Shown here piece after piece: positions 3,741-58,350 of a DNA stretch of 64,000 bases (positions within the stretch are counted from its first letter, which is position 1; every line of letters starts with the position of its first letter). Made by a program: the position numbers and the translations under genes. A model generated the notes under the pieces. The model was not told where the DNA came from and ran no database searches. It saw only the letters and a list, made by a program, of their open reading frames with translations. The DNA is taken from assembly GCA_015058155.1 (NCBI GenBank), contig SVCW01000006.1, forward strand, positions 14,408 to 78,407. The letters run 5' to 3'. This stretch comes from Clostridiales bacterium. GTDB lineage: Bacteria; Bacillota; Clostridia; Peptostreptococcales; Anaerovoracaceae.

Positions 3741-3756
3741 ACCAAGAGGTATATAA

Positions 3757-5376
3757 ATGATTGACCACATTAGCATTAAAGATTTTGCAATAATTGAAAA
3801 TGCTGAGGTTGATTTCCAGCCTGGTCTTAATATCCTGACTGGAGAAACCGGTGCCGGTAAATCGATTGTAATAGAAGCAGTTAGCCTTGCGCTTGGCGCA
3901 CGAGCAGATACTGCTTTTGTTCGTTCTGGATGTGATAAAGCGATTGTACAGCTTTCCGGTACACTTGACGGTGAAGAAATCGTAATCACACGTGAAGTAT
4001 CAGCTGCGGGAAAAAACCTCTGTAAACTTAATGGTGAACTTGTAACTCTCGCTCAGCTTAATACATACTGCAGAAAGCTCGCCGATATTCACGGTCAGTA
4101 CGATCACCAGTCACTTCTCGACCCTGCTTATCATATCAACCTTGTTGACATATTCCATAGTGAAGATATAGCACCTGTAAGAAATATGGTAGCTGACCTT
4201 TATAGCTCATATAGAGATGCTAAGCACAGACTTGATTCACTCATTTCTGGTGCTGCTGAAAACGCAAGAAAACGTGATTTCATGGCTTATGAAGTGAATG
4301 AAATCCGTTCAGCAGACTTAAGACCTGGTGAAGATACAGATCTTGAAGAACAGTATTCAGTTTTACAGAATGCCGAAAAGATTTATAAGGCCCTTGCAGA
4401 AGCATACTCATGTGCTCAGGACTCTACTCCTTCAGCACTCGATTCGCTTTCCCGTATATCAACTATTTTACAGGGAGTTTCAGGGTACACATCAAAGCTT
4501 TCAGAAATCAGTTCCGGTTTTGACGACCTTTTCTATCAGCTCCAGGATATGATTTCAGAAATCAGAGATACACGTGACAATGTCACTTTTTCTCCAGAAG
4601 AACTTGATGAATGTATTTCAAGAATCGAAACGATTAATAAATTAAAAAAGAAATACGGTAATTCCATAGAAGAAATCCTTGAATATGCTGATGAAAACGA
4701 GAAGAAACTCTACGATATCGATAACATCGATGAAGAAAAAGAAAACCTCGAAAGAGAATTATCAGTACTCAATGATCAGCTTGAACTTGCATCAGAAAGA
4801 CTTACTAAATTAAGAAAAAAATCTGCAGAAGAACTCGAAAGAAAAATTTCCAAGGAACTTCTCGAACTCAATTTTGCAGAAAGCAATCTTTCTATCAGTT
4901 TTGAAACACTCCCTTCTTTTACGGAAAACGGAATTGACAAAGTTGAATTCCTTATAAGTACAAACAAGGGCGAACCGCTCAAGCCTCTTGCGAAGATAGC
5001 ATCAGGTGGTGAAATGTCGAGAATAATGCTCGCTTTTAAGAATATCGTTGCTGAGTACGATAACATCCCTACTCTTATTTTCGATGAAATTGATGCCGGA
5101 ATATCAGGTATTGCTGCAAGTGTCGTTGGTAAGAAATTAAAAGAAATTGCAGATAAGCATCAGATTATATGCATCACTCACCTTCCACAGATTGCTGCAT
5201 GCGGAAGTCACAACTACAGAATTTATAAAGAAAGCAACGAATCTACAACAAGGACAAGTATCGAGTCCCTTGATAAAAATGAAAAAGTTCTTGAAATTGC
5301 AAGACTCCTTGGTGGTACAAACATTACCGATACTACACTGAAAAGTGCACAGGAACTTATAGAAGCTTCATTATAA
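3757..5376 (+). CDS. recN: DNA repair protein RecN
   Basis: 539 aa SMC-like protein: N-terminal Walker A GETGAGKS, long coiled coil, C-terminal signature SGGEMSRIMLA and Walker B LIFDEIDAG. Confidence 0.93.
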   Translation: MIDHISIKDFAIIENAEVDFQPGLNILTGETGAGKSIVIEAVSLALGARADTAFVRSGCDKAIVQLSGTLDGEEIVITREVSAAGKNLCKLNGELVTLAQLNTYCRKLADIHGQYDHQSLLDPAYHINLVDIFHSEDIAPVRNMVADLYSSYRDAKHRLDSLISGAAENARKRDFMAYEVNEIRSADLRPGEDTDLEEQYSVLQNAEKIYKALAEAYSCAQDSTPSALDSLSRISTILQGVSGYTSKLSEISSGFDDLFYQLQDMISEIRDTRDNVTFSPEELDECISRIETINKLKKKYGNSIEEILEYADENEKKLYDIDNIDEEKENLERELSVLNDQLELASERLTKLRKKSAEELERKISKELLELNFAESNLSISFETLPSFTENGIDKVEFLISTNKGEPLKPLAKIASGGEMSRIMLAFKNIVAEYDNIPTLIFDEIDAGISGIAASVVGKKLKEIADKHQIICITHLPQIAACGSHNYRIYKESNESTTRTSIESLDKNEKVLEIARLLGGTNITDTTLKSAQELIEASL

Positions 5377-5447: not shown

Positions 5448-7418
5448 TTATTCAGCGTCTGCTGCTTCTTCTGCTGCAGGAGCTTCTTCAGCAACTGGAG
5501 CTTCGATGCAAGCCTTGAGGCTGAGGCTGATTCTCTTTCTGTCAACGTCGATTTCAAGGATCTGAGCCTGAACGTCCTGACCTACTGAGATTTCATCAGC
5601 GATGTTTGTAACTCTCTTATGAGCTACTTCTGAAATGTGTACAAGACCATCAAGACCTGGTTCGAGTTCTACGAATGCACCGTATTCCTTGATCTGTACA
5701 ACTTTACCTTCTACAGTCTGTCCAACTTCATACTTTTCGTTGATAACTGTCCAAGGTTCAGGCTGATTCTGCTTGTAACCAAGAGAAATCTTGCCCTTTT
5801 CTTCGTTCATCTGGAGAATGATAACGTTGATCTTCTGTCCGATTTCGAGAACTTCCTGTGGGTGCTTAAGCTTGCCCCATGAAATTTCTGAAATATGTAA
5901 GAGACCGTCGATTCCGCCGATATCTACAAATGCACCGTAATCAGTAAATCTCATAACAGTACCTTCAACGATGTCGCCAACGTTGAGCTTGCCCCAGATT
6001 TCAGCAATCTTAGCTGCTCTTTCTTCAGCAAGAACTACCTTGTGTGAGAATACTGCTCTTCCCTTCATCTTGTCAACTCTGTTAACCTTAACGTCGAGAG
6101 TCTGTCCGATGAATTCGTCTGCACTTTCAACATACTTGTCTGAAAGCTGTGACATAGGAATGAATCCTGATACTTCCTTGTAAGCTGCAATAACACCACC
6201 GTTTACTGCTCTTACGATCTTTACGCTTAATGTTGATTTATTTTCTAAAGCTTCTGCAACTTCGTCCCAGTGTTCGTTGATTTCAAGCTTTTTCTTTGAA
6301 AGAATAATTTCACCGTCGTCAGTTCTGATAACCTTAGCCTGGATTTCGTCTCCTTCTTTAAATAAATCTGTTAATTTCTGGCCTTCTTCCATAGTTACTT
6401 CGTCCTTTGGAATAATACCATCTTTCTTACAGCCAAGGTTAACAATAACTTCTTTTTCAGTTGCCTGAAGCACCTTACCATTAACAATTTCTCCGCTGCG
6501 TGGTAATCTCAATGACTTATCGATATCATCCATAAAATCGAGCATTGAGTTCATTTCAGTGATAATTTCACTCATGTTAGCAATAACCTCCTCAATTACA
6601 GATTCGGGCGTCGATGCACCCGCTGCAACTCCTATTTTATTACATTTTTCAACTTCTTTCAATGGTAAATCTTTTAAATTTTCAATAAAATATGCTTTGT
6701 CACAATATTTATTTGCAATATCATAAAGTTTACGACTGTTTGAACTTTCTCTACCGCCTATAACTATCATCATTTCAACGTTCTTTGCAGTTTCCATACA
6801 GCTTTGCTGGCGTATTGTAGTAGCATTGCAGATAGTGTTTTTCACATCGGTTTTCTTGCCTTTTTCAGTGAAAACACTGACGCACGAATCGAAGAGTTCT
6901 TTTCTGATAGTAGTCTGTGCTACAACATACAGATTATCTTCCTCAACAAGGTCTGCTTCCTCAGGTGTTCCGACAACTTTTGCATGTGTGCACCATCCGC
7001 TGATGCCGATAACTTCGGCATGATTTCTGTCGCCAACTATTATTACATTCTTACCTTCTGCCTCAGCATCTCTTACAAGTTCATGAATGTGTGTAACATT
7101 GGGGCACGTTGCGTCAATGATATTTATATTTCTCTTTTCCGCTTCTTCATAAAAAGCCTTCGTCTGACCATGTGATCTTATAATTACCGTGTCACCCGAT
7201 GATGCTTCAGAAAGATCTCTGATTATTGAAAGACCTTTTGATGCGAGTTCATCAGTAACAATATCATTATGAATAAGAGGTCCGGCTGAGTAAATTCTTC
7301 TGCCGCCTTCCGCATCATGCTTTTCAACTTCTTCATTGGCAATATCTATTGCACGCTTTACTCCGTAACAGAATCCGGAGTTCTTCGCTCTTATAATTTC
7401 TCTTTTGTTTTCCATCAT
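5448..7418 (-). CDS. ispH: Bifunctional 4-hydroxy-3-methylbut-2-enyl diphosphate reductase (IspH/LytB) / ribosomal protein S1 domain protein
   Basis: 656 aa; N-terminal ~280 aa IspH (CYGVKRAI, three-Cys Fe–S enzyme) fused to four S1 RNA-binding repeats. This fusion is common in Clostridia. Confidence 0.9.
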   Translation of the reverse strand: MMENKREIIRAKNSGFCYGVKRAIDIANEEVEKHDAEGGRRIYSAGPLIHNDIVTDELASKGLSIIRDLSEASSGDTVIIRSHGQTKAFYEEAEKRNINIIDATCPNVTHIHELVRDAEAEGKNVIIVGDRNHAEVIGISGWCTHAKVVGTPEEADLVEEDNLYVVAQTTIRKELFDSCVSVFTEKGKKTDVKNTICNATTIRQQSCMETAKNVEMMIVIGGRESSNSRKLYDIANKYCDKAYFIENLKDLPLKEVEKCNKIGVAAGASTPESVIEEVIANMSEIITEMNSMLDFMDDIDKSLRLPRSGEIVNGKVLQATEKEVIVNLGCKKDGIIPKDEVTMEEGQKLTDLFKEGDEIQAKVIRTDDGEIILSKKKLEINEHWDEVAEALENKSTLSVKIVRAVNGGVIAAYKEVSGFIPMSQLSDKYVESADEFIGQTLDVKVNRVDKMKGRAVFSHKVVLAEERAAKIAEIWGKLNVGDIVEGTVMRFTDYGAFVDIGGIDGLLHISEISWGKLKHPQEVLEIGQKINVIILQMNEEKGKISLGYKQNQPEPWTVINEKYEVGQTVEGKVVQIKEYGAFVELEPGLDGLVHISEVAHKRVTNIADEISVGQDVQAQILEIDVDRKRISLSLKACIEAPVAEEAPAAEEAADAE

Positions 7419-11874: not shown

Positions 11875-13017
11875 TCAATAATTATGTGTAATCATTATCT
11901 CATCATCATCGAATTCTGCCAGTACAGAGAAACCTGTATAAAATTCACTGATTCTGAAAGTATCATAATAATAGTTATTTAAATTAACCTGTATGAGATC
12001 CATCATTCTTAGAAGCTTGATATCTCTATCCTCAAGAGTCAGGAAAATCATAAGATAATCATGATAATATAATGCATCTACACTCATTCCGCGCCTTACC
12101 ATATCCCATTCGTTTTCAGCATCTTCTGCCGCCCACGCAGCTATAATCAAGGCCTGTGTTGCAACTACTGCAGGTCCCGGTGTTAGTAGTTCTGCTTCTG
12201 CAAGAGCAGCCGAAACTTTTGCAGGATCTGCGTAAATCCTGGCAATATTAACCGGCGTCCTCAATGCAACGAAATATTTATGAACCCTGTCAAGATTTTC
12301 AATATCAGTACTACATCCGGAGATTATGTATTCAATTTCATACGAGAGAAATGATTCAGCTGTATTATCTGATCTCAGATGATTGAAATGCTCAAAAATA
12401 TACTGATTAACAAGAAACTTATCTCCTGTTTCAGCTATAAGCCCCTTAAGTCCTCCGCTTTTAATCTCAGGTATATCAATTTCAAATCCTTTTTCTTTGT
12501 TCATTGATGATGGTAGTTTACCGGTATCTATAACTCCGGTATTTTCAGGAATCATAATTGATGTAACTAATGAATCATCAGTATCTTCTGTCTGATTTTG
12601 TCTTTCAAAAACAGATACTTTATCATACATCGCTGCTTTTATAATCTGATCCTCAAAAGTATCAATGTTTGTAATTTCAAATCCTTCAGTATCTGCATCA
12701 AGCAAAGTTAAATCAAGTGAAAAAGCATTGTTTGAGTAAATATCCGTATGCTTTATATAAAACATCAGTTGTTTTTCTATATATTTATTACTTCCCCGGA
12801 ATGCAACTATTCCATAATCATTGAAGAGTCTTCTGTCATATTCAGAGAGTACAGACCTTGAAGAAAGATCAAGAATTGCTCGCCTGTAACTTTCTTCAGC
12901 TTCTTCCCTAGCATTAATGGAAAATACGATTACAGCGCTTAATAATCCGGCAAGTGCTATTGATAAAAAAACAGTTACAGCCCCGCGCTTGTCAGGCTTG
13001 AAATGGTGTGAACGCAT
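11875..13017 (-). CDS. TadG/TadE-like Flp pilus assembly protein (Tad_N family)
   Basis: N-terminus DKRGAVTVFLSIALAGLLSAVIVFSIN matches the TadE/G-like N-terminal signature; 380 aa; ATG verified at 13015-13017. Confidence 0.65.
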   Translation of the reverse strand: MRSHHFKPDKRGAVTVFLSIALAGLLSAVIVFSINAREEAEESYRRAILDLSSRSVLSEYDRRLFNDYGIVAFRGSNKYIEKQLMFYIKHTDIYSNNAFSLDLTLLDADTEGFEITNIDTFEDQIIKAAMYDKVSVFERQNQTEDTDDSLVTSIMIPENTGVIDTGKLPSSMNKEKGFEIDIPEIKSGGLKGLIAETGDKFLVNQYIFEHFNHLRSDNTAESFLSYEIEYIISGCSTDIENLDRVHKYFVALRTPVNIARIYADPAKVSAALAEAELLTPGPAVVATQALIIAAWAAEDAENEWDMVRRGMSVDALYYHDYLMIFLTLEDRDIKLLRMMDLIQVNLNNYYYDTFRISEFYTGFSVLAEFDDDEIMITHNY

Positions 13018-13403
13018 CTGAGATACTCTTCCTCATCAATGATATCTTTTGAAATGCTGCAATCTCCGGTTTTGTCTGTATTTACAATACCTCTTGATAT
13101 AACGGGGAATTCTGCATACCCTCTGACAATATCACTCACAATTGTATTCTCTCGATCAGTTACAACATAAGAATCCATGAGCCAGGCTTCGTCAAAAGTG
13201 TCATGTGAATCGTCACTATATGATACTGTGTTACTCATATTTCCTGCTTCATTCATAAGAGTCATATGAAGTCTTGTATTTACAATAACTTCGGAATATA
13301 GATTTATAGTTATGTACATGATTGTAAGAAGTGTAAAAATCATAATCGGATATATAACTGCAGCTTCGATCATCATACTTCCTTTTCTTTCCCTTAATTT
13401 CAT
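12975..13403 (-). CDS. TadE-like pseudopilin
   Basis: MKLRERKGSMMIEAAVIYPIMIFTLLTI (TadE_N motif); start moved to the MKLRE Met at ~13403, which lies just below the flp stop. Confidence 0.6.
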   Translation of the reverse strand: MKLRERKGSMMIEAAVIYPIMIFTLLTIMYITINLYSEVIVNTRLHMTLMNEAGNMSNTVSYSDDSHDTFDEAWLMDSYVVTDRENTIVSDIVRGYAEFPVISRGIVNTDKTGDCSISKDIIDEEEYLRCVHTISSLTSAGL

Positions 13404-13410
13404 GTCACAG

Positions 13411-13584
13411 TTAAATAAAACCGCCTCCGTTAAGTGTGTCAAAGACTGCATTTACAAAGTCTGTAATCTGTATTCTGAATATAATACCTACTGCAACACT
13501 GATTCCTATAAGGACTGCCACCTGAACAAGCTCCATCCCCTTTTTACTTGCTTTGATAATTCTTCTTTTCTTTCTTCTATACAT
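13411..13584 (-). CDS. flp: Flp-family type IVb prepilin (57 aa), not in ORF track
   Basis: Hand-found ORF: GGAGG RBS 6 nt before the ATG; MYRRKKRRIIKASKKG|MELVQVAVLIGISVAVGIIF... is a basic leader, a Gly cleavage site and a hydrophobic helix starting with Glu; sits between tadC and tadE as in Gram-positive tad loci. Confidence 0.55.
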   Translation of the reverse strand: MYRRKKRRIIKASKKGMELVQVAVLIGISVAVGIIFRIQITDFVNAVFDTLNGGGFI

Positions 13585-13596
13585 AAAATACCTCCT

Positions 13597-14136
13597 TTAG
13601 AAATACATAAGTGCAGGAGCCGCAGTTATCAGTATTAATGAAAGAAGCATAAGTGCCATAGGAAAAGTCAATTTGCTTTCTGCAATTCTTCCTCTTTCCT
13701 CAACCTGTTTCCTGCTCATCTGCCACATAAATGAAGCTTCTATATCAAGCTTTTTGACAAGCTCGCTTCCCTTATCGATATTATCGCTGAATATATTTGA
13801 AAGTCTCAGCAGTTCGCGCAATCCGATCCTTCTTGCGAAATTACGGAATTCATCTTCAAATGTACTGTTAACATTTTTCATTTTAATTGAAATATTTCTT
13901 AACTCTCTGCAGAGTACCGATTCGCTATCTTCTTCAGCTATTGTCTCTATTGCACTCCTCAGAACGAGTCCTGCATTTAATAAAAGAACGAGCTTGTTTG
14001 TAAATTCGGGAAGTTCCAGAAGTATCACTTTCTTTACTTCTTCCTCTTGTTTTTTTGCATTTTTCTTTTCTATTTCCTGCTTTAATCGCTTTATCATCCC
14101 AAATCTTAATATCTGTAATCCTGTCAGCCATAACAA
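13597..14136 (-). CDS. tadC: TadC-like type II secretion system F-domain protein (start uncertain; see finding on tadB overlap)
   Basis: T2SSF domain LLELPEFTNKLVLLLNAGLVLRSAIETIAEE plus a C-terminal TM; the ORF-track 'M' is TTG; first ATG (MIKRLKQ) is at ~14097; 5' end overlaps tadB. Confidence 0.7.
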   Translation of the reverse strand: MLWLTGLQILRFGMIKRLKQEIEKKNAKKQEEEVKKVILLELPEFTNKLVLLLNAGLVLRSAIETIAEEDSESVLCRELRNISIKMKNVNSTFEDEFRNFARRIGLRELLRLSNIFSDNIDKGSELVKKLDIEASFMWQMSRKQVEERGRIAESKLTFPMALMLLSLILITAAPALMYF

Positions 14137-14878
14137 AGCCTGAAAGTGTCATCAGAAGTGAAATCGTCATAACGATACGTCCCTGAAGCCCTTGATATAA
14201 CGGTAATAAATAGTCTGGTGCAATAATTCTTAAAAACAATACTATAAATACCGGCATGATCCCTATTACTCTTCCTTCAAAACGTTTCTGGGCAACATAC
14301 GATTCAATCTCCCTTACAATTGTCATCTTATCTATAAGATTTCCTGTTGTTATTTCTATAACACGTACTATGTCAGCTCCGGTAGTTTTTGAAATAATAT
14401 AAATCTCTGCAAATGATCTGATATCACTGATTCCGCTTCTCATTCCAAGCTCCAGAAGCATTTTTTCTTCACTATCGTTTGTTAGCTGAAACCGTCTTGT
14501 CATATTATCAAGTTCAATAATCATCGGAGAATCAATCTCATATAAAAGCGTCAGATTACTACGACCTTCCGTAAGCGCTTCTTCAAGATGCCTTCCTGCT
14601 CCGAAAGAAGAAGATAATGAATAAAGAAGATCTCTGAACTGAAGAGATAATAGATCCTTTCGTTTGCGACATTTATATTCTTTAAACAATTTGAAGGCAA
14701 AGACAATTACAGGAAGCGATGTCAGCATGACAACAGGAGTATTGTAATATAGATACTGAATTACAACTGACGAAAAGTATGATACAATAGCAACGTCGAG
14801 CTTCTCCTTTTTTGACATTTCATAAATGTTATAGTCTATCTCCGTCATATGAACATCCTGCCAGTTCAAGTTTTTCAT
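13934..14878 (-). CDS. tadB: TadB-like type II secretion system F-domain protein
   Basis: N-terminal TM segment, T2SSF domain (LLSLQFRDLLYSLSSSFGAGRHLEEAL), two C-terminal TMs; the last ~40 codons are K/R-rich low complexity read from the alternative frame of tadC. Confidence 0.75.
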   Translation of the reverse strand: MKNLNWQDVHMTEIDYNIYEMSKKEKLDVAIVSYFSSVVIQYLYYNTPVVMLTSLPVIVFAFKLFKEYKCRKRKDLLSLQFRDLLYSLSSSFGAGRHLEEALTEGRSNLTLLYEIDSPMIIELDNMTRRFQLTNDSEEKMLLELGMRSGISDIRSFAEIYIISKTTGADIVRVIEITTGNLIDKMTIVREIESYVAQKRFEGRVIGIMPVFIVLFLRIIAPDYLLPLYQGLQGRIVMTISLLMTLSGFVMADRITDIKIWDDKAIKAGNRKEKCKKTRGRSKESDTSGTSRIYKQARSFIKCRTRSEECNRDNS

Positions 14879-16079
14879 TATTGATCAGACTGTTTCCCGT
14901 AAAAACAAGTCCTTTGTTAATTTTATACTTAAATATAGTATTAATTATATAATTATTATTTTCAAAACCTTGAATTTCTGCGATTTCAAGGACTTTTCTG
15001 CCGACACCGTTAATTCGTCCGAGATGTACAATTAAATCGATTCCACGGGCAATCTGATGCCTTACAGAGTCACTCGGTACATCTCCGCTCTGCAAACACA
15101 TTGCTTCCATTCTCTCAAGCATGCCTTCTATTGAATTAGCATGCCCTGTTGACATACTGTAATGCCCCGTGTTCATAGCCTGAAGCATTGATATACATTC
15201 CTTTCCTCTGATTTCTCCTACAACAATCCAGTCAGGTCTCATACGAAGGCTGTTTCTTATAAGCATGTCCATACTTACTTCTCCTACCCCCTGTATGTTT
15301 GCATTTCTGCATTCCAGCCTTACAAGATTTTCAATTCCCCTGAGCTGAAGTTCTGCTGAGTCTTCTATTACGACAACTCTGTTACCTTTTGGTATGAATT
15401 CTGATAATACATTGAGAAATGTAGTCTTACCTGATGAAGTACCGCCGCTTACAAAAATGTTGTATCCTGCTCTTACAAGCATTTTCAAAAAATCAGCTGC
15501 CTCTTCGCTTATGGTTTTGTTTCCGACAAGACTATTCATATCAAGAGCTGCCCTGGGAAACTTTCTGATTGAAAGAACAGGCCCGTCAAGTGCTATATTT
15601 TTATAAACAGCATTAACACGGGCACCATTCGATAGCCTTGCATCGAGAATCGGACTTCTCTCGTTTACTTCACGATGCACTTTTGCTGCGATTCTCCTGA
15701 TTACTTCTTCAAGTGTTTCAACAGAATCAAATACTACATCTAATTTTTCAATACTTCCATTTCTTTCAATAAAAATATTGTCAAATCCGTTAACCATGAT
15801 TTCAGTTACCGTTTCATCATTTATATAAGGTGTCAGGATATCATACTCCGATCTTATTGAAAAGAATATTTCCTGAATCATCTGTCGTAGCTTTGCGATA
15901 GTAAGCATACTTACACTTTCACTCTCGAAAACTAATCTTTCAATCTCAGAAAAAGCAGATACATCATCTATGTCATACCCCTTAAGCATGATTTCTTTTC
16001 TTGCAATTTCCGTCAGCTCTTTTTTCAGAACAGCATATTCATTATTACTTTTTATTCTATTATTTACTTTATTTTCCAT
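14829..16079 (-). CDS. tadA: TadA/CpaF-family pilus assembly ATPase
   Basis: 416 aa; Walker A VSGGTSSGKTTFLN, VVIEDSAELQL, hexameric secretion-ATPase His box (MNTGHYSMSTGHANS). Confidence 0.9.
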   Translation of the reverse strand: MENKVNNRIKSNNEYAVLKKELTEIARKEIMLKGYDIDDVSAFSEIERLVFESESVSMLTIAKLRQMIQEIFFSIRSEYDILTPYINDETVTEIMVNGFDNIFIERNGSIEKLDVVFDSVETLEEVIRRIAAKVHREVNERSPILDARLSNGARVNAVYKNIALDGPVLSIRKFPRAALDMNSLVGNKTISEEAADFLKMLVRAGYNIFVSGGTSSGKTTFLNVLSEFIPKGNRVVVIEDSAELQLRGIENLVRLECRNANIQGVGEVSMDMLIRNSLRMRPDWIVVGEIRGKECISMLQAMNTGHYSMSTGHANSIEGMLERMEAMCLQSGDVPSDSVRHQIARGIDLIVHLGRINGVGRKVLEIAEIQGFENNNYIINTIFKYKINKGLVFTGNSLINNEKLELAGCSYDGDRL

Positions 16080-16335: not shown

Positions 16336-16557
16336 TTATCCTTTCATTGCTTCAAGAGCTCTGGCAAACTCTGAAATGAGCTTTTCAGACAATGAAATAC
16401 ACTCATTCAGGCTTTCTGAAGTTCCATTCAGCCCGAGACTTTCAGCAGTTTCCTTAAGTTTTACGATTTCTTCAGTATGATGCTCAGTGTGATGTTTCAT
16501 GTGATGGATCAGTGCTTCAAGCTCCATTAATTTTTCGTTATTATCGCTGTTACACAT
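16336..16557 (-). CDS. Small His-rich protein (putative metal-binding)
   Basis: 73 aa starting MC; HHMKHHTEHHTEE cluster (7 His in 12 residues); strong AGGAG RBS 8 nt upstream; 18 nt downstream of cooC. Confidence 0.55.
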   Translation of the reverse strand: MCNSDNNEKLMELEALIHHMKHHTEHHTEEIVKLKETAESLGLNGTSESLNECISLSEKLISEFARALEAMKG

Positions 16558-17548: not shown

Positions 17549-18688
17549 TTATTCTGCAAGATTAAGTGAATCCAGAATGTGCTGAGGACCATTTTCAGGA
17601 ATATGTGAAACAGGCTTATTGATAATCATTGATAATGCCTTTTCAGGACAGTTAACAACACAAATACCACAACCCATACAAGTTTCTTCATTTACAACTG
17701 CCTTGCCGTCAACGATCTTGATTGATTCAAAGAACGGACAAAGTTCTGCACACTTGCCGCAGCCGATACATGATTCCTGATCAACAACTGTAACGAATCT
17801 GCTTGGCATGATACCATCCGAGAATTTTTTGTATTCCATAGCAGCCATTCTCATATCGCAACAGTCAGTACAGCAGTTACAGAATCCGCCACGAACTTCT
17901 CTGCTGTTTCCGATCATATGATAATTAGGCTTGTCTTCAAGCATTTCAAGGTTCTTCATTACTTCTTCCACAGACATATATCTTCCGAGTTCCATGTCTT
18001 CAACGAAGTGTTCTGCAACCTTACCGAACTTTATACAGTGACCTTCTTCAGGAAGTTCACCTTCCCAGGCAACGTCGTCATTTCTCATTACAGTTCTGCA
18101 CATGCATCTTACTGAGCTGATGTGTTCCTGTTCCATGAGAATATCAAGAAGATTTTCACAAGGCATTACGCCAGGAATATCTTTGATAGCCTTCCACTTA
18201 GGAAGAATTCTGAATTCTGCAGGTGGTGCTACGTATTCTTCACCTGCTGCTTCTGCTTCTTTCCATTTAGCACTGTATGCACCGAGATATTCATCAGAAG
18301 TTCTGATACCTTTTACGAGATCAAGGAAACCCTTGCCCCACTTTTTGATGAGCTCAGGATTAACAATACCATAGTCAGCAATGTTCACGATGCTCGCTGC
18401 AAAATTAACTTTACCGTTTGCGTGGTTTTTATGCGCAAGACCTGAAACTATTGATTCTTTTATGTACTTTTCAACTGTCTCGACATCCCAGCCGAGCTTT
18501 TCGGCTATATCTTCTGCAGTTGCAGGATATTCGCAACATACTTTTGCAGCTTCAACCGAAATCATATATTTCAAAAGTCTAGGGACATAGAAATTATCAT
18601 TATCTGCGAGGAATTTAGCCGCAACATCATAGTATTCTTTTTCTACTTTACAATCTACAACATATCCTGGAATTGAGTAATGTGTCAT
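17549..18688 (-). CDS. Cys-rich iron–sulfur protein with two C-terminal [4Fe-4S] ferredoxin motifs (uncharacterised)
   Basis: 379 aa, ~20 Cys: CIGCGKCAELCP and CMGCGICVVNCP; additional clusters FCNCCTDCC, RCMC, VCC; N-terminal HTH-like segment (AEDIAEKLGWDVETVEKYIKE); GGAGG RBS. Confidence 0.6.
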   Translation of the reverse strand: MTHYSIPGYVVDCKVEKEYYDVAAKFLADNDNFYVPRLLKYMISVEAAKVCCEYPATAEDIAEKLGWDVETVEKYIKESIVSGLAHKNHANGKVNFAASIVNIADYGIVNPELIKKWGKGFLDLVKGIRTSDEYLGAYSAKWKEAEAAGEEYVAPPAEFRILPKWKAIKDIPGVMPCENLLDILMEQEHISSVRCMCRTVMRNDDVAWEGELPEEGHCIKFGKVAEHFVEDMELGRYMSVEEVMKNLEMLEDKPNYHMIGNSREVRGGFCNCCTDCCDMRMAAMEYKKFSDGIMPSRFVTVVDQESCIGCGKCAELCPFFESIKIVDGKAVVNEETCMGCGICVVNCPEKALSMIINKPVSHIPENGPQHILDSLNLAE

Positions 18689-18723
18689 ATCTGTAACCTC
18701 CTCATTAATAAAATAACACCATT

Positions 18724-18760
18724 AATCATAATTATACAATTAATGGTGTTTTTCGTCAAT
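18724..18760 (-). promoter_or_regulatory. Sigma-A-type promoter TTGACG-N17-TATAAT embedded in a 12-bp inverted repeat, upstream of the Fe–S/cooC/cooT operon
   Basis: Minus-strand TTGACG (18754-18759) and TATAAT (18731-18736); the repeat AACACCATTAAT…ATTAATGGTGTT spans the spacer and -10, followed by ATTTT. Could also be the terminator of the upstream antiporter. Confidence 0.4.
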
Positions 18761-22879: not shown

Positions 22880-22930
22880 GAATCTTAACGAAATTTTAAC
22901 ACATAATCATACCGTATAATATTTTAACAG
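22880..22930. promoter_or_regulatory. PhoP-box-like TTAAC(G/A) direct repeats upstream of the Na/Pi cotransporter gene
   Basis: TTAACGaaattTTAACA (5-nt spacer, 22885-22901) plus a third TTAACA at ~22924, in the AT-rich region 60-105 nt upstream of the start codon. Confidence 0.3.
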
Positions 22931-23943
22931 AATAAAGCGTTAAACGCAATATTTTTAATACCAATACCAAAGCTTCCGTCAATATGAATTCTACCCTCCT
23001 GGAAGGATTCCGGATCATAATCAATACTAATTAATTTATCATCAGAACTTACGTTATTATGTACTTTTTCAACTTCTATCCTTTCTGATCCATTCTCGTT
23101 TTCGTGCCCTGAAACATCGTTTACGATTACCGTTATTTCTTTGCTTTCCTTATTAATAATTTTATTAATCATATTTATCATTTTACTGAAATCCATATAA
23201 TTACTTCTTGCATTTTTTACAAGCAGTATATTGTCAGCATATGAAAGTACTGATTTATTGTCGAATACTTTCTCCTTTGGAAGATCGATGATAATCACAT
23301 CGAACAATTCTGAATCAATCATCCATTTAAGAAGCTTATCATGTATTTCTTCCTCACAAAGGCATAACGGATTGATTCCCTCGCCGTAATACGGCGTGTA
23401 ATACTCATCATCTGTTTTAATAAAAAATGATGATGGTACTATTTCTCTGTCTCCGGAATTGAAGCATGTATCATCAGTTAAACGATATAGTAATTTTCTG
23501 AAAGAGCTGCTATTATCTTCTACACATACGTCAGGAAATAGTGAAAAAGAAATAATGCATGTTTTCTTATCGTAGTATAAAGACATCTCTTTACCAAGAG
23601 CCTTTGATATCGATGTCACACCTGCCCCGCCTTCACATCCCATTACGGTAATTATCCGCGTATCAGATTTCGAATGATTTGAATGATTTTTCACAGTAAT
23701 TTGAAAACTATTAACAACTACTTCATTGACTTCAGAAAAAGAAGTATACGCTTCAAAAATTTTAACCTTATCACTCAGTAAAACATCAGTTTTGTCAGTA
23801 ATGACAAATCCGTCAAAACTATGTATACGGTCGTAATCACCGACCGTAATCTCTGCTCCGATTTCCTGAAGCAAGAATGCTTTTGCGAGAGCCTCCCCGT
23901 ATTCTTCATCAGAAAAAGATATCAGTAATTTATATCTGTTCAC
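22924..23943 (-). CDS. TadZ/CpaE-like protein: degenerate receiver-like N-domain plus MinD/ParA-like domain with non-canonical Walker A (orphan)
   Basis: ITVMGCEGGAGVTSIS replaces the GKGGxGK[ST] motif (both Lys absent); Walker-B-like FDVIIIDLP; N-terminal KLLISFSDEEYGEALAKAFLL is receiver-like. Start reassigned to GTG ~23943 with GGAGG RBS (the ORF-track ATG 23994 has no RBS). Confidence 0.45.
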   Translation of the reverse strand: MNRYKLLISFSDEEYGEALAKAFLLQEIGAEITVGDYDRIHSFDGFVITDKTDVLLSDKVKIFEAYTSFSEVNEVVVNSFQITVKNHSNHSKSDTRIITVMGCEGGAGVTSISKALGKEMSLYYDKKTCIISFSLFPDVCVEDNSSSFRKLLYRLTDDTCFNSGDREIVPSSFFIKTDDEYYTPYYGEGINPLCLCEEEIHDKLLKWMIDSELFDVIIIDLPKEKVFDNKSVLSYADNILLVKNARSNYMDFSKMINMINKIINKESKEITVIVNDVSGHENENGSERIEVEKVHNNVSSDDKLISIDYDPESFQEGRIHIDGSFGIGIKNIAFNALFC

Positions 23944-24003
23944 AATAAACCTCCAGTTTCCATATTTTGTAAATATTATAAGGTTTATTTCCATATTTTG
24001 TCA
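23944..24003 (-). promoter_or_regulatory. Intergenic promoter (TTGACA-N17/18-TATAAT) flanked by two copies of 14-mer ACAAAATATGGAAA
   Basis: Minus strand: ttgACAAAATATGGAAAtaaaccTTATAATatttACAAAATATGGAAActggagg…GTG; one 14-mer overlaps the -35, the other the predicted 5' UTR. Confidence 0.35.
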
Positions 24004-36764: not shown

Positions 36765-37376
36765 CTATTTATTGTCTGCTTCGCTGATTATTTTCTTGAG
36801 CGGTTTACTGATTTTCTTGTAAACGAAGAATGTTATAACTGAAGTTACTGTTCTTGATATTACGTTGAATGGAACGATTGAAAAAGCAACTACAGTCGGT
36901 ATGTTTTTGATATATGGGTTTACAGCTGAGAACATTCCTACTATCATATCCCAGTCCATTCCGTAGAGGAACATATATGCAGGGAAAATGAGATAAATGT
37001 TTGTAATTATTGCTGTAATGATACTGAGAACTGATCCTAAAACGAGTCCTATAACAGCACCCTTCTTTGTACGATGCTTTCTGTAGTAAAGGACTGCAGG
37101 AAGTACATATGTTACGCTAAGAAGGAAATTCTGGATTTCTCCTGTAAGCATTGATGAACTTCCCTGGAATACCAGTTTCAGAAGAAGCTTTACTGTAATG
37201 ATTTCAATTGCTCCAACCGGACCGAGTACGAAGCCTCCGATGAGTTCAGGGAGCGCCGAAAGGTCGAATTCCGCAAATGGCGAAAGGAACGGAACTCCGA
37301 AATTAAAGAAGATGAGAATGAATGATGCACATCCCATCATTGCCGCCACTACAAGGCGATAAACTTTTTGTCTCAT
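36765..37376 (-). CDS. ribU: ECF-transporter S component, riboflavin-type (RibU)
   Basis: 203 aa, 5–6 TM helices, ECF S-component fold; preceded by an FMN riboswitch. Confidence 0.75.
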   Translation of the reverse strand: MRQKVYRLVVAAMMGCASFILIFFNFGVPFLSPFAEFDLSALPELIGGFVLGPVGAIEIITVKLLLKLVFQGSSSMLTGEIQNFLLSVTYVLPAVLYYRKHRTKKGAVIGLVLGSVLSIITAIITNIYLIFPAYMFLYGMDWDMIVGMFSAVNPYIKNIPTVVAFSIVPFNVISRTVTSVITFFVYKKISKPLKKIISEADNK

Positions 37377-37419: not shown

Positions 37420-37645
37420 ATTAAAAATCCCGAAGCCAAATTTCTGTCAGCCTCGGGAATTGCTTCACGGAAATAAACGATGACACGTAAAGTCACCTTC
37501 CTTGAAGAATTCAGTCTTTTACCATCCGGACTATACCGTCGGTTTCTGAGTTTCACAGAATCGGCCCTCGCACATGCTCGGGTTCATGGACTATACCATC
37601 GGTCGGGAATCACACCCTGCCCCAAAGACTTCCAGTATTTACTTC
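37420..37645 (-). promoter_or_regulatory. FMN riboswitch (RFN element) with terminator expression platform, leader of ribU
   Basis: Minus-strand RNA: AGUCUUUGGGGCAGGGUGUGAUUCCCGACCGAUGGUAUAGUCC…CGAUUCUGUGAAACUCAGAAACCGACGGUAUAGUCCGGAUGGUAAAAGACU matches the conserved FMN aptamer core; P1 is AGUCUUU/AAAGACU; downstream hairpin CCCGAGGC…GCUUCGGG+AUUUUU; TTGACT-N17-TATAAT promoter upstream. Confidence 0.85.
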
Positions 37646-38243: not shown

Positions 38244-38332
38244 TAAAACATATGGAAGCGTATCGAAGTGGTCATAACGAGCCGCACTCGAAATGCGGTG
38301 TACCTCCGGGTACCGTGGGTTCGAATCCCACC
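38244..38332 (+). tRNA. tRNA-Ser (anticodon CGA)
   Basis: GGAAGCG acceptor stem pairs with CGCTTCC plus G and CCA; D-arm TCG/CGA; anticodon stem CCGCA/TGCGG with loop CTCGAAA (anticodon CGA); long variable arm GTACC…GGTAC; T-arm GTGGG-TTCGAAT-CCCAC. Promoter TTGCTT-N17-TATAAT upstream, hairpin+T-run terminator downstream. Confidence 0.85.
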
Positions 38333-38444
38333 GCTTCCGCCAGACAGACAACATGGAATTGCCCATGTTGTTTTGTTTTTTGCAGGTTTCGACAGTGAAT
38401 GATGCTTGCAACTGCCGAAGTTTCTTTGCTTTCATCCCTATCCT

Positions 38445-38984: not shown

Positions 38985-40085
38985 ATGGAATACAGAAAAT
39001 TACCACACGGCGAAGCAAAGCTCAGTACAATCGGTATAGGCCTCGCAAATCTTCAGACCCAGGGCGCAGACGACAAGAACAGCCTTGAAGTTTTTGAAAC
39101 TGCATTTGAAGGCGGTATCAATTTCTTTGACCTCTGCTGTACAAAGGAAGATACTTTCAAGGTTTTTGGTAAGGTTGATAAAGGTGAAAGATCAAAGTTT
39201 CACACTCAGATGCATCTCGGTCAGATTTATATTGATGGCGAGTATGGTCGTGACAGAGATCTCGAAAAGACTAAGAGAGCTTTTGAAACTACACTTGAAT
39301 ATACAGGAATGGATTATACTGATTTCGGATTCATTCATTGCGTTGATGAAGATGAAGAATTCAATCAAATTATGGAGAACGGCACATGGGACTATCTCGT
39401 AAATCTTAAAAAGCAGGGAGTTGTAAAGCATATCGGTTTTTCATCACACACTCCTGAAATTGCAAAGAAATATATTGATACAGGGCTTGTTGACCTCTTT
39501 ATGTTCAGTGTTAATCCTGTATTTGACTATGGTAAGGGTGAATACGGAATCGGCGCTATTCAGGAACGTTCAGATTTCTATAAGTACTGTGAAAGTCTCG
39601 GAATCGGTATCACAGTTATGAAGCCTTTTGCCGGTGGCCAGCTTCTTGATGAAAAAGCTTCTCCTCTAGGAATCGCACTTACACATAATCAGTGTATCAA
39701 ATACGTTCTCGACAGACCTGCTGTGCTTTCTGCTCTTCCAGGCGTAACTTCAGCTGAAGAAGTAAAGAAAGTACTTGAATATTATAAGGCATCTGATGAA
39801 GATAAGGATTACTCAATTATCGGCACTGCAACACCTAGTGAAGCTGTAGGTCGCTGTGTGTATTGTAACCACTGCGCTCCATGTCCTGTAGGCATCAATG
39901 TAAGCCTTGTAAATAAGTATTATGACCTTGCAAAGCTTGGTGATGCTCTTGCAGCTGACCATTACAAGAAACTTTCGCTTCATGCCGGTGACTGTGTCCA
40001 GTGCGGTAGCTGCAACTCAAGATGTCCTTTCAAGGTTAATCAGACTGACAGAATGCTCGAAATCAAGGATTACTTCGGTTTCTAA
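38985..40085 (+). CDS. Aldo/keto reductase with C-terminal [4Fe-4S] domain
   Basis: AKR TIM-barrel N-terminus; C-terminal CVYCNHCAPCP and CVQCGSCNSRCP. Confidence 0.85.
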   Translation: MEYRKLPHGEAKLSTIGIGLANLQTQGADDKNSLEVFETAFEGGINFFDLCCTKEDTFKVFGKVDKGERSKFHTQMHLGQIYIDGEYGRDRDLEKTKRAFETTLEYTGMDYTDFGFIHCVDEDEEFNQIMENGTWDYLVNLKKQGVVKHIGFSSHTPEIAKKYIDTGLVDLFMFSVNPVFDYGKGEYGIGAIQERSDFYKYCESLGIGITVMKPFAGGQLLDEKASPLGIALTHNQCIKYVLDRPAVLSALPGVTSAEEVKKVLEYYKASDEDKDYSIIGTATPSEAVGRCVYCNHCAPCPVGINVSLVNKYYDLAKLGDALAADHYKKLSLHAGDCVQCGSCNSRCPFKVNQTDRMLEIKDYFGF

Positions 40086-54985: not shown

Positions 54986-56326
54986 CTAGTCAATATCATT
55001 ATCGTCATCGAGCATTACCATTTCCGGAATCTCGAGAATACTTCTCGATTCATGTTCCGGAAGGCTCTGTACATTTTTGAGCTTCTGCTTGATAACGTTT
55101 GTTCTTGTACCGATAAGTGTATCAAGTTCTTTGTTTGCCTGGTTGATTCTTTCCTGAGTCTTTGCAAGCACAGTTCCGAACTTATCAAATTCAGTCTTTA
55201 CAGCTCCGAGTACCTGCCATACTTCACTTGAATGTTTCTGGATTGCAAGCGTTTTGAATCCCATCTGAAGGCTGTTGAGAAGGGCTGCCATAGTAGTCGG
55301 CCCTGCAATATTAACCCTGTATTCGCGCTGGAGTGTTTCAATAAGACCAAGTCTTACTACTTCTGCATAAAGACCTTCAACCGGAAGGAACATAATTGCA
55401 AAATCTGTAGTGTCAGGCGGATAAATGTACTTATCCCTTATATCCTTTGCTTCGTTCTTGATAGTCTGGATAAGCACCTTTTCTGCAGCTTTTACAGCTT
55501 CGCGGTCGCCTTCTTCATAAGCATCCATGAGTTTGCTGTAGCTGTCCGCAGGGAACTTTGCGTCTATAGGAAGATATACAATACCTTCGTCATTACCAGG
55601 AAGTCTTATTGCAAATTCAACCCTGTCACTGCTTCCCTTCTTTGTTGCAACATTTTCATCATACTGCTCCTGTGTGAGAATCTGCTCAAGTATTGCTGAA
55701 AGCTGGATTTCTCCGAGGATACCCCTTGTTTTTACATTTGAAAGAACTTTTTTAAGATCTCCTACTCCTGATGCAAGATTCTGCATTTCACCAAGACCCT
55801 TGTATACTGCTTCAAGTCTCTCTGATACGAGATTGAAAGACTGTGTGATTCTGTCTTCAAGTGTTTTCTGAAGCTTTTCATCGACAGTATCACGCATCTT
55901 TTCAAGCTGCTTGTTGTTGTCTTCAGTAAGAGCATTGATTCTGCTCTCCATTGTCTTTCTGATATTTTCAAGACGCTGCTCGTTTTCAACATTCATGTTT
56001 GAAAGCTGGCGCTGCATTTCCTGAAGTCTCTTATCCTGATTGTCTGCGGAATCCTTCTGTGTAGTGTTCAGAAGTTCTCCGAAAAGCTTGAAACTTGCCT
56101 GCATTGCCTGGTTTGTTTCTGCCCTTGAAGATTTGATTTCATTATCGAGTTCAAACTTTATGTCACGAAGTTCCTTTGACATGCTTTCAAACTTCTGGTC
56201 ATACTCACCTTTAAGTGCTGCATCATTTCTATTAAGAGAATTTCTGATCATCAGCACTGCGATAATGATGAGTACCAATACTACTGCTGATATTCCTGCT
56301 ATTAAAAATAATAAAATGTTTTCCAT
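54986..56326 (-). CDS. rmuC: DNA recombination protein RmuC
   Basis: N-terminal TM, long coiled coil, conserved RmuC C-terminal domain (IVYLPIDAKFP…FAIMFLPVEGL). Confidence 0.85.
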   Translation of the reverse strand: MENILLFLIAGISAVVLVLIIIAVLMIRNSLNRNDAALKGEYDQKFESMSKELRDIKFELDNEIKSSRAETNQAMQASFKLFGELLNTTQKDSADNQDKRLQEMQRQLSNMNVENEQRLENIRKTMESRINALTEDNNKQLEKMRDTVDEKLQKTLEDRITQSFNLVSERLEAVYKGLGEMQNLASGVGDLKKVLSNVKTRGILGEIQLSAILEQILTQEQYDENVATKKGSSDRVEFAIRLPGNDEGIVYLPIDAKFPADSYSKLMDAYEEGDREAVKAAEKVLIQTIKNEAKDIRDKYIYPPDTTDFAIMFLPVEGLYAEVVRLGLIETLQREYRVNIAGPTTMAALLNSLQMGFKTLAIQKHSSEVWQVLGAVKTEFDKFGTVLAKTQERINQANKELDTLIGTRTNVIKQKLKNVQSLPEHESRSILEIPEMVMLDDDNDID

Positions 56327-58350
56327 TACTTTTCTCCCTGAAAGTCAACTATTCCCTCTATTCCTAATACTTTGGCACGCATGAGTGCATCATTATCCCC
56401 GTCAAATGAAAAATACGTCATTATGTCTTTTCCAGGCTGCAGATTTGCATATATACCTGCAGTCGTTTCATCTACGAGAATTCCTGCTATATGGTTGTCC
56501 GATACGAAGTCGCTCAGCTCCTTTACTGTGAGACTGCCTGGTACCGGTTTCACAATAATACTATTGTATCCGAGATAATCAATCTTCGTAACCATTCCGA
56601 TATCTTCCGTAACAGGGTATACATGTTCCCTGAAGAGAAGATAATCTTCATTCATGCTTTCATCAACGGAAAGAATCGTTCCCTTCTTTCCTGTCTTTCC
56701 GGAATAATTATCCTGAATATATGTCATGAGATTATAAGTGTCATCTGATAAGAGAGCAGCATAGTAACCTTCGTCCTCTCTTATATTTCTTACAATCTCT
56801 TCATATACTTCCTTTATACCCTCTTTATCGTCTGCTGACACTTCAAAACCATCTGTAAAGGCTGAAATTTTAACATTTCCGAAGAGTTCCGCATTGATTT
56901 GCTCAATTCCCTTACCTTCAAGTATTGCAAGCTTTAAAACGTCATTTTCAAGGTAAAACTGTGATACATCTATCATGTTCATAGCTTTAAGATACTCATC
57001 GTAATAGTCATCAGGATTAAGGCTCTCTCCTGTAATCCTGTTTCTTACACTTGAATTTCTGAAGACACCATCACGAGACATTTCAAATACTACATCATCC
57101 ATGACAAAGGAACCTTTGAGCATATGCATCTGGAACGGTACAAATCCAGATTCAGCTGTCAGGAGATTCTGTCCCATATATAAAGTATCAAGCTCCTCAA
57201 TACCGAGAAGGTATGATGCTGTAGGGAATATATCCCACTGTGCTCCTGACACACTTATTCTTTCATTTCCATCATAACCCGGGATATGTACGAAAAGCGG
57301 TACTCTTAGCATTTCATCATATGTGTACGCTTCTCCTCTCCAGTCTGAGACTACCTTCGTAATATCTGTATCGGCACGTGTAAGTCCAAAGTGATCTCCA
57401 TACATAATTATAAGGGAGTTATCGTATAGTCCTTCTTCTTTAAGTGCATCAAAGAATTCCTCGAGACATCTGTCGGAATAATTCGCTGACTGAATATATC
57501 TGCCCACGATGTTTTCCTCTTCAGGTCTTAACTCAATCTCCTGAAGAAATTCTGGAAGTCCGAAAGGATTGTGAGTCGAAAGAGTTATTACAAAACTGTA
57601 ATAAGGCTCCTCGAGTTCTTTCATATAGTCAACAGTCTGATCAAAAAATGCACTGTCACTTATACCTACTATATTACCGGCTCCTATACCTTCAATATTG
57701 TCATTTACAAACTCGGTATCTCCGTAGAAATTATCAAATCCAAGAGTAGGGTACACATTTTCCCTGTTCCAGAAGTCTTTCTTGTATCCGTGGAATACGT
57801 TCGTGTTATATCCTTTTTCTTTAAGAATCCACGGAAGTCCCTTGAAATAATTATCCTGATAAAGCTGGTATGTGTAGCTTTCGATACTTCCTATAATTGA
57901 ATTGTTTACTACGAATTCTGCATCGGAAGTATTACCTGCTCCGAGCTGACAATAGAAATTATCAAAATAGAATGTTCCCGGCTCATCAATAAGTGAATTG
58001 AGAAATGGCGTAATCTCCTGTCCGTAATAATCTGATTCAAGCATCATTGACTGCATTGATTCCATCTGGACGATTATAAGGTTTCTTCCTTCCGCTATTC
58101 CGAAAAGATCACCATCAATCTGATTCTTATAAGTTCCTGTCGCAAGGTAATAATTGCTCTTTTCTTCACCCTTGTCAGCATAGTCCGCTATATCTTTTAT
58201 GTGGGTAAGAAAAAACTCCTGACTTGTAAGTGACGTTATAAAAGCGCTTCCGAAAGGATTCTCAATAAGAATTGCAATAACGAGAATCGTCACTAAAACC
58301 CTATAAAATTTTTTAATTTGCCTTGGTAATGATTCCCATATCTTTATCAT
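56326..58350 (-). CDS. LtaS-like sulfatase-family protein (paralogue 2) with extra ~190-aa C-terminal domain
   Basis: Single N-terminal TM, alkaline-phosphatase/sulfatase-fold domain paralogous to the upstream gene; start overlaps the 3' end of paralogue 1 by 38 nt; stop overlaps the rmuC start. Confidence 0.75.
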   Translation of the reverse strand: MIKIWESLPRQIKKFYRVLVTILVIAILIENPFGSAFITSLTSQEFFLTHIKDIADYADKGEEKSNYYLATGTYKNQIDGDLFGIAEGRNLIIVQMESMQSMMLESDYYGQEITPFLNSLIDEPGTFYFDNFYCQLGAGNTSDAEFVVNNSIIGSIESYTYQLYQDNYFKGLPWILKEKGYNTNVFHGYKKDFWNRENVYPTLGFDNFYGDTEFVNDNIEGIGAGNIVGISDSAFFDQTVDYMKELEEPYYSFVITLSTHNPFGLPEFLQEIELRPEEENIVGRYIQSANYSDRCLEEFFDALKEEGLYDNSLIIMYGDHFGLTRADTDITKVVSDWRGEAYTYDEMLRVPLFVHIPGYDGNERISVSGAQWDIFPTASYLLGIEELDTLYMGQNLLTAESGFVPFQMHMLKGSFVMDDVVFEMSRDGVFRNSSVRNRITGESLNPDDYYDEYLKAMNMIDVSQFYLENDVLKLAILEGKGIEQINAELFGNVKISAFTDGFEVSADDKEGIKEVYEEIVRNIREDEGYYAALLSDDTYNLMTYIQDNYSGKTGKKGTILSVDESMNEDYLLFREHVYPVTEDIGMVTKIDYLGYNSIIVKPVPGSLTVKELSDFVSDNHIAGILVDETTAGIYANLQPGKDIMTYFSFDGDNDALMRAKVLGIEGIVDFQGEK

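Follow-up and report, generated by a model that had tools for sequence, protein, structure and literature searches.

What does a nickel-insertion system serve where no known nickel enzyme is encoded nearby? This question is raised by a 64,000-nucleotide stretch of the genome of a Clostridiales bacterium (Anaerovoracaceae; assembly GCA_015058155.1, contig SVCW01000006.1, positions 14,408 to 78,407), hereafter the window, in which the gene for a cysteine-rich protein of 379 amino acids (aa), here called X, heads an operon with genes for a CooC-type ATPase, a small histidine-containing protein, and the nickel protein CooT. An earlier note on this DNA, made from its letters alone, had offered two readings of X, a Ni/Fe-S catalytic subunit and a metal- or redox-sensing regulator. 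Comparative genomics favored the first and disfavored the second. The enzyme is favored because the CooC-type partner of X is obligate, CooT accompanies the pair in three loci, HypB and HypA accompany an X-like gene elsewhere, and a related protein, the putative isoprene reductase IsrA, is itself linked to HypA and HypB. From these sequence comparisons, we propose that X is the redox-active subunit of an uncharacterized nickel-dependent Fe-S enzyme and that the other three genes are its maturation machinery, a proposal to which we give about an even chance of being right.

The reading frame of X has exactly the ends given in the earlier note, which left its strand (minus) unstated, and a GAGGAGG ribosome-binding site lies 8 nucleotides (nt) 5' of its ATG. 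X contains 20 cysteines, as had been estimated, and all of the cysteine motifs previously quoted were found. No other open reading frame (ORF) in the window is as rich in cysteine, which makes up 5.3% of X and a pooled 1.23% of the remaining 47 ORFs (binomial P of about 8e-8). The second most cysteine-rich, with 13 cysteines, encodes an aldo/keto reductase with a C-terminal 4Fe-4S dicluster (38985-40085, plus strand).

An AlphaFold2 model built with 17 homologues (predicted local distance difference test, 90.3; predicted template modeling score, pTM, 0.88) divides X into four parts: a winged helix, a helical linker, an alpha/beta domain rich in cysteines, and a C-terminal 2x[4Fe-4S] ferredoxin. 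The ferredoxin, already recognized in the earlier note, scored above the curated thresholds of both PF14697 (48.1 bits; cutoff, 35) and PF00037 (41.2 bits; cutoff, 21.1). It carries two CxxCxxCxxxCP motifs (C307, C310, C313, and C317; C337, C340, C343, and C347), and its sequence matches in the PDB were the ferredoxin modules of MvhB, RnfB, and FwdF. The domain before it (residues 151 to 297) is marked by the motifs W-x-A-I-K-x-I-P-G-V-M-P-C-E, R-C-x-C-R, H-C, Y-H-M-x2-N-x-R, and C-N-C-C-x2-C-C, and in the predicted secondary structure its unusual cysteines sit at strand ends and in the ensuing loops of neighboring elements.

Residues 1 to 297 matched nothing in Pfam, NCBIfam, or the PDB library except for subthreshold helix-turn-helix (HTH) hits, which in Pfam were to Sigma70_r3/r4 only, at 12 to 14 bits. 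Thus, no known family in these three collections accounts for all of the cysteine clusters, and the cysteine-rich domain resembles no solved structure; a confident family match, which would have counted against the earlier note's suggestion, was not obtained. The claim that they fit no family stands for curated databases; the domain had, however, been described without a name in the 2023 paper on IsrA, discussed below. The exclusion of radical-SAM, CooF, and HdrC proteins also held, with no family-level match above cutoff and neither CxxxCxxC nor CCG motifs in residues 1 to 297. The generic 2x[4Fe-4S] module was all that aligned, with NCBIfam scores far under the equivalog cutoffs. Nor is X a Ni,Fe-carbon monoxide dehydrogenase (CODH, CooS) or an acetyl-CoA synthase (ACS), since it has no Prismane/CooS or CdhC/ACS domain and lacks the ligand pattern of a C-cluster or A-cluster.

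Which of the unusual cysteines matter can be read from the homologues. There are few close relatives. When 5.8 billion clusters were searched with a word index, 24 matches had E values of ≤1e-3, about 18 of them full length. An exhaustive search with an X profile from which the ferredoxin had been removed gave 2,418 representatives at E values of ≤1e-3 and 1,231 at ≤1e-10. Because only about 11 of these are close (at least 215 bits) and the remainder score 181 bits or less, X belongs to a minor branch of a family that is large and widely distributed. Members carry generic database names ("4Fe-4S binding protein," "RnfB," "PreA subunit," "ferredoxin/Lrp regulator") that derive from the ferredoxin or HTH part.

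In 22 close and 141 distant representatives, eight cysteines outside the ferredoxin (C195, C197, C218, C270, C272, C273, C276, and C277) were near-invariant, and R198, N261, and P163 were likewise essentially invariant. Loss of the nonferredoxin cysteines, which the earlier note had named as grounds for abandoning its suggestion, was therefore not what we saw. Among homologues, all eight ferredoxin cysteines were invariant except C310, kept in at least 90%. Not every cluster singled out earlier fared equally well. C13 and the C51/C52 (VCC) pair are not conserved and so fall outside the feature, and C177 (MPCEN), which had been overlooked, is present in 21 of 22 members of the close subfamily and is mostly Tyr elsewhere. 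We considered C177 as a hallmark of ATPase-linked members and rejected it, as linked members of the Chloroflexota type have F, I, or Y there. The linked members have a loop signature in common, W-x-A-I-K-x-I-P-G-V-x-P-x-E, in which G173 is found in 18/18 linked and 2/13 unlinked members.

Closely spaced cysteines (CxC, CC) near an Fe-S cluster, with input of the ferredoxin type, also occur in the catalytic subunit of ferredoxin:thioredoxin reductase and in the CCG domains of HdrB. These are defined by CPC...CPC...CHC and by CX31-39CCX35-36CXXC, respectively. X differs in having neither the motifs nor a profile or fold match to either family. It also differs at position 273, where Cys is sometimes replaced by His or Gly; the Cys/His exchange, a swap characteristic of metal ligands, points to such a ligand and not to a redox-active disulfide.

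The genes that follow X are consistent with such a ligand site being filled by a dedicated system. On the minus strand, the order is X, ATPase, 73-aa protein, and CooT, with gaps of 29, 17, and 9 nt, which bears out the previous description of X as the first gene of a cooC/cooT operon. The best PDB match of the ATPase, from query residue 58 onward, is CooC1 of Carboxydothermus hydrogenoformans (3KJE; E value, 4e-20), and its C166 and C168, in the sequence QGCAC, align with the nickel-binding C-x-C of CooC1. It also has the deviant Walker A motif GKGGAGKS of the CooC family, to which it is closest. In contrast to CooC1, it begins with an extension of about 55 aa that contains the motif FHCP-x11-CIxCGxC (C6, C18, C21, and C24). 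This motif, the Walker A motif, and QGCAC were invariant among 118 relatives, and C6, C18, C21, C24, C166, C168, and, less strictly, C62 were kept in 102 to 118 of them. The long form gave 732 database matches at E values of ≤1e-20. CooT is a bona fide member of PF10133, with the expected Met-Cys start (MCLAIVYK).

The 73-aa protein, absent from the earlier note, belongs to no family that we could find in Pfam or NCBIfam. A 70-aa ORF (3747-3959) in an actinobacterial locus (L011) occupies the same slot between ATPase and CooT and is 32% identical over 63 aa (E value, 6e-7), and the proteins from the Firmicute and the actinobacterium share a conserved L-x-ELEAL...KH-x2-EH-x-EEI motif. From its sequence, the protein is a candidate metal-binding accessory protein and may be an undescribed component of a metallochaperone system. 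The operon resembles the CooC/CooT/CooJ set of Ni,Fe-CODH in its C-x-C ATPase and its CooT, and the small histidine-containing protein occupies the position expected of CooJ. It differs in that no Pfam family shows similarity to this small protein and in that X is not a CODH.

The pairing of X with the ATPase is not a peculiarity of this genome. In every X-anchored locus of at least 31% identity (L001 to L007 and L010 to L014, from Firmicutes and Actinomycetota), the two genes are adjacent, and no other neighbor recurs. In the reverse direction, an X-like gene lies directly beside the ATPase in 5/5 loci anchored on the ATPase (L047 to L050 and L052; anchors chosen from long contigs of other lineages), with profile E values of 1e-51 to 1e-94 and a second copy in two loci. 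In L007 (5783-11069), two X paralogues flank the long ATPase, and after them come a flavodoxin, a DUF8180 protein, and, ahead of both, a 370-aa protein that Pfam does not recognize; judged by its position, the flavodoxin could be an electron donor. CooT follows the X/ATPase pair in two actinobacterial loci, L010 (8846-14877; 54.3 bits) and L011 (245-6528; 57.4 bits). These also encode an APH-type phosphotransferase and two family-less proteins (340 and 166 aa), and upstream lies an oppositely oriented MerR-TetR fusion regulator. Since CooT and a homologue of the small histidine-containing protein occur in actinobacterial loci, the module of four genes is shared between phyla.

More distant X-like genes (about 28% identity or less, from archaea, Desulfobacterota, and some Chloroflexota) have no ATPase within 5 to 10 kb. 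A metagenome scan gave, among the matches listed, mostly such distant members without the ATPase, and it was also the source of a locus of a different kind (L046, 346-2519). Here, a distant stand-alone X-like gene is followed, with a 4-bp overlap, by HypB (PF02492, 70.6 bits) and then by HypA (PF01155, 80.9 bits). Two other apparent Hyp neighbors were rejected: a regular-expression match to HypA (L030, 1273-1572) is a DnaJ-like zinc-finger ORF, and an ORF with a HypB-like motif in L022 is a leucine-rich-repeat protein.

Is there another client that these nickel proteins might serve? In the window, we found no CODH, ACS, hydrogenase, or urease, nor a nickel transporter or Ni/Co riboswitch, and the flanking genes checked in about 17 loci included no CODH, ACS, hydrogenase, or urease. 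The association with CODH/ACS that characterizes the CooC family was thus absent for this ATPase, whose neighbor was always an X-like gene. A paper on CODH genomic context is silent on non-CODH clients of CooC (PMC13056359), and in the CODH-context literature, CooC, CooT, and CooJ are treated only as maturases of CODH/ACS. The CooC2/DUF166 pair of Methanococcus was considered as a parallel and set aside, being a different system that serves CODH/ACS (bioRxiv 10.1101/2024.03.05.583561). The eight-cysteine domain thus occurs together with two nickel-insertion systems that are unrelated to each other, and no known nickel enzyme lies close by; the simplest reading is that the domain itself is the nickel client.

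The same domain has been met before in another setting. IsrA (VUZ27132.1) is the putative isoprene reductase of the isr operon of Acetobacterium wieringae ISORED-2; its first 270 or so residues match no known domain and align with VUZ27135.1, a "4Fe-4S ferredoxin" (PMC10134865, mSystems 2023). In the IsrA model, six cysteines, including C180-x-C182 and C254-x-C256, come together as "cluster V," proposed to be a possible nickel site like the A-cluster of ACS or the P-type and double-cubane clusters, and in IsrA-type proteins this domain ends the chain of clusters beside a predicted substrate tunnel (PMC10134865). Among 988 IsrA homologues, HypA was within five genes in 73% and HypB in 56%, an association also reported in a genome without [NiFe]-hydrogenase; for the stand-alone form, no association with HypA/HypB was described, and CooC goes unmentioned (PMC10134865). 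We found no biochemical follow-up of this proposal in the literature searched.

Our link to IsrA runs through P0169, an 834-aa protein of IsrA architecture. P0169 matches the X N-terminal profile over positions 16 to 290 (E value, 8e-30). Its numbering agrees with that published for IsrA, with C-x-C at 181/183 and 252/254 and the ferredoxin motif from residue 288 onward. Among ten distant members compared with Pfam, it alone had extra domains: the X-like domain is followed by Fer4_20, Pyr_redox_2, and Fer4, an FAD/NAD(P)H module like that of GltD/NfnB. Its contigs are too short to show chaperone context, and the chaperone statistics for IsrA are those of PMC10134865. In X, as in IsrA, an unrecognized region precedes the ferredoxin (from residue 298), and two C-x-C motifs, with more clustered cysteines, lie at nearly the same distance (195/197 and 270/272, 75 residues apart; about 74 in IsrA). 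VUZ27135.1 shares this layout. Both X and IsrA are linked to nickel chaperones without a known nickel enzyme.

X also differs from IsrA. It stands alone, without the FAD/NAD(P)H module; its chaperones are a CooC-type ATPase, CooT, and a small histidine-containing protein instead of HypA/HypB; and its subfamily has the signature W-x-A-I-K-x-I-P-G-V-M-P-C-E with C177. The domain was noticed in 2023 and left unnamed; X stands for a separate, stand-alone subfamily whose maturation system is different and apparently unreported. New with respect to the IsrA paper are the CooC-type association and the stand-alone X-like gene with HypB and HypA in L046.

The metal content, cluster type, direction of electron flow, and catalytic role that we infer for X can be combined into a working model, for which ACS serves as the analogy. 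In the A-cluster of ACS, a [4Fe-4S] cluster is bridged to a Ni-Ni center via Cys-Gly-Cys. X has C-x-C motifs near further cysteines and would, like ACS, have a maturase of the CooC type (AcsF-like) and receive electrons from a low-potential ferredoxin. In the model, the eight cysteines hold a composite site made up of a [4Fe-4S]-type cluster and at least one additional metal ion, most probably nickel, and the two C-x-C motifs would bridge the cluster and the additional metal in the manner of Cys-Gly-Cys in ACS. The ATPase would dimerize upon ATP binding, bind nickel at its C-x-C, and insert it into X, with CooT and the small histidine-containing protein supplying the nickel. Its N-terminal four-cysteine cluster might keep the acceptor site reduced or sense the state of the acceptor. 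A ferredoxin or flavodoxin from outside would donate electrons, which would travel by way of the two C-terminal [4Fe-4S] clusters to the Ni-Fe-S site and there reduce a small substrate; by analogy with IsrA, this substrate may be an unsaturated molecule. The winged helix would be a structural or lid domain and not a DNA binder.

Several observations weigh against this model. The metal content and activity of every member of the family, IsrA included, are putative. C-x-C sites of the CooC type bind zinc too, and the N-terminal Fe-S motif of the ATPase fits an electron donor or an Fe-S carrier as well as it fits a nickel insertase. The grouping of the eight cysteines in space is predicted from their secondary-structure positions and from the published IsrA model. 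Only 3 of the roughly 17 linked loci have CooT together with the pair. In the loci compared, no recurrent gene suggests a substrate, the contexts being too variable, and many distant members (archaeal, Desulfobacterota, L008, and L015 to L045) have no nickel chaperone within 5 to 10 kb. Because of these distant members, nickel is perhaps a clade-specific addition, or the chaperones are encoded elsewhere.

The first alternative keeps the catalytic role of X and dispenses with nickel. CooC-type ATPases share the SIMIBI/MinD class with the nitrogenase Fe protein, BchL, and CfbC, and the ATPase might likewise be an ATP-dependent reductase that injects low-potential electrons into an all-iron, eight-cysteine cluster (P-cluster- or double-cubane-like) for the reduction of a difficult substrate. 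The invariant C-x11-C-x2-C-x2-C at its N terminus, its weak matches to NifH-type Pfam and NCBIfam models, and its strict one-to-one adjacency to X, as for a reductase and its catalytic partner, are all consistent with such a role. Seven to eight cysteines would also suit an 8Fe cluster, and a P-type or double-cubane likeness was noted for IsrA (PMC10134865). However, the nearest solved relative of the ATPase is CooC1 and not NifH, and the C-x-C is present in 118/118 relatives; the nickel protein CooT (three loci) and a histidine-containing partner share the operon; and elsewhere the partners of the domain are HypA/HypB, whose role is that of metal chaperones instead of reductases. We consider electron injection unlikely.

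A second alternative removes catalysis as well. In it, X would be a four-cluster polyferredoxin whose eight cysteines, enough for two cubanes, bind two more [4Fe-4S] clusters loaded by an ATPase of the Mrp/Nbp35 kind. The combination of N-terminal four cysteines and an interface cysteine pair in the ATPase resembles that of Nbp35, one source labels a homologue "Iron-sulfur cluster carrier protein," and the X-like protein of the isr operon is annotated simply as a ferredoxin (PMC10134865). Nevertheless, an ordinary ferredoxin has no need of an ATPase of its own that is inherited with it, and the motif of this one is the C-x-C of CooC, whereas Mrp/Nbp35 have C-x-x-C. The partners CooT and HypA/HypB are specific to nickel, the CxC and CxCCxxCC spacing of X is unlike any cubane-binding motif in Pfam, and in IsrA-type proteins the domain lies at the end of the cluster chain by the predicted tunnel. 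This possibility seems to us distinctly less probable than electron injection.

The earlier note's second reading, in which X is a transcription factor, would have the winged helix bind DNA, for example a palindrome at its own promoter, and the Fe-S/Cys domain sense redox state, nickel, or a gas. The winged-helix fold that the earlier note suspected is genuine, and several homologues gave weak MarR, TrmB, and Crp-HTH matches in Pfam; what is missing is a family-level match, all of these hits being below curated cutoffs, and a basic recognition surface. The winged helix of X is acidic (isoelectric point, 5.3), with two basic and three acidic residues in its third helix. It is packed rigidly into a model that forms a single body (pTM, 0.88), and the whole N-terminal region, winged helix included, is kept inside the FAD/NAD(P)H flavoenzyme P0169. 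A 12+12-bp palindrome does lie over the putative -10 box of X, and a genomic context as variable as this one would suit a regulator. As a conserved operator, however, the palindrome was rejected, because the upstream regions of homologues in other organisms do not have it, and four Fe-S-type sites with a dedicated ATPase would be far more than a sensor should need. We regard the regulator as very improbable.

Least probable of all is that X and the ATPase form a scaffold that builds a Ni-Fe-S cofactor for a separate enzyme, as NifEN and NifB do for nitrogenase, for although the nickel-chaperone context would be the same and the neighborhood has no recurrent gene related to a substrate, none of the loci has a recurrent gene for a candidate recipient either, and the IsrA-type fusion to an electron-input module argues that the domain is the working end.

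The features of the X operon are collected in Table 1. Upstream of X, a site matching promoter consensus is a candidate for its promoter. The palindrome that overlaps it is followed by ATTTTATT; from its sequence, it is a candidate operator, or else it may terminate the transcript of the Na+/H+ exchanger gene that lies upstream.

Table 1. Features of the X operon, in coordinates of the 64,000-nt window
Feature	Position	Strand	Basis
X, 379 aa	17549..18688	(-)	ORF; AlphaFold2 model; homologues and conserved cysteines
X winged-helix domain, residues 17-97	18398..18640	(-)	Winged-helix fold
X helical linker, residues 98-150	18239..18397	(-)	Helices 100-147 in both models
X alpha/beta Cys-rich domain, residues 151-297	17798..18238	(-)	
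X 2x[4Fe-4S] bacterial-type ferredoxin, residues 298-358	17615..17797	(-)	PF14697, PF00037
Long CooC-type P-loop ATPase, 314 aa	16575..17519	(-)	PDB match to CooC1 and conserved cysteines
Helical His-containing protein, 73 aa (HHMKHHTEHHTEE)	16336..16557	(-)	70-aa homologue in L011
CooT, 59 aa	16147..16326	(-)	PF10133, 43.3 bits (cutoff, 27), profile positions 1-58 of 60
Promoter-like site upstream of X (TTGACG, 17 nt, TATAAT)	18731..18759	(-)	11/12 consensus matches
Palindrome AACACCATTAAT-N12-ATTAATGGTGTT	18715..18750	(-)	Perfect 12-bp arms; overlaps -10 box of promoter-like site

The operon lies in a block of about 6.8 kb that also holds a Na+/H+ exchanger with a TrkA-C domain and a Na/Pi cotransporter with a PhoU domain. 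Genes like those of Tad/type IV pili flank the block at 11875-16079 and 22924-23994 (minus strand); their products are a T2SSE ATPase, a T2SSF-like protein, and a protein with weak likeness to CpaE/AAA_31. Perhaps the block was inserted into the pilus locus. Elsewhere in the window, an FMN (flavin mononucleotide) riboswitch (RF00050, 105.7 bits; 37510-37633, minus strand) lies upstream of the S component of an energy-coupling factor transporter (36765-37376), presumably a riboflavin transporter. A tRNA-Ser gene (anticodon CGA; 38254-38342, plus strand) stands alone in about 1.6 kb without an ORF of at least 150 aa. A 656-aa ORF (5448-7418, minus strand) fuses LytB/IspH to four S1 RNA-binding domains, and two large consecutive sulfatase-domain genes (674 and 890 aa; 56326-60985, minus strand) have ORFs that overlap by 38 bp. 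The window also encodes SpoIIP and the germination protease, and the host looks like a spore-forming Firmicute.

If the nickel-enzyme reading is right, its reach would extend well beyond this genome. No more than about ten kinds of nickel enzyme have been recognized, and the discovery of each opened new chemistry. With somewhat less confidence than we have in the proposal for X itself, we suggest that X and its relatives constitute a new class of nickel enzyme, with a fold absent from the PDB and a new Ni-Fe-S cofactor. This cofactor would be matured either by an Fe-S-bearing CooC-type ATPase, together with CooT and the new small histidine-containing protein, or by HypA/HypB, and it would be used for low-potential reductions of small unsaturated molecules. 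Such a class would be widespread in anaerobic Firmicutes, Actinomycetota, Chloroflexota, and Desulfobacterota and possibly in Asgard archaea. The results give an independent line of support to the 2023 proposal of IsrA cluster V as a nickel site. They also suggest that many orphan CooC paralogues now named "CO dehydrogenase maturation factor" probably serve another client, and that there would be a defining domain for thousands of proteins whose present names are "RnfB," "PreA subunit," or "4Fe-4S binding protein." The compact four-gene operon could be expressed heterologously, which would put the proposed nickel site of this family to a direct test.

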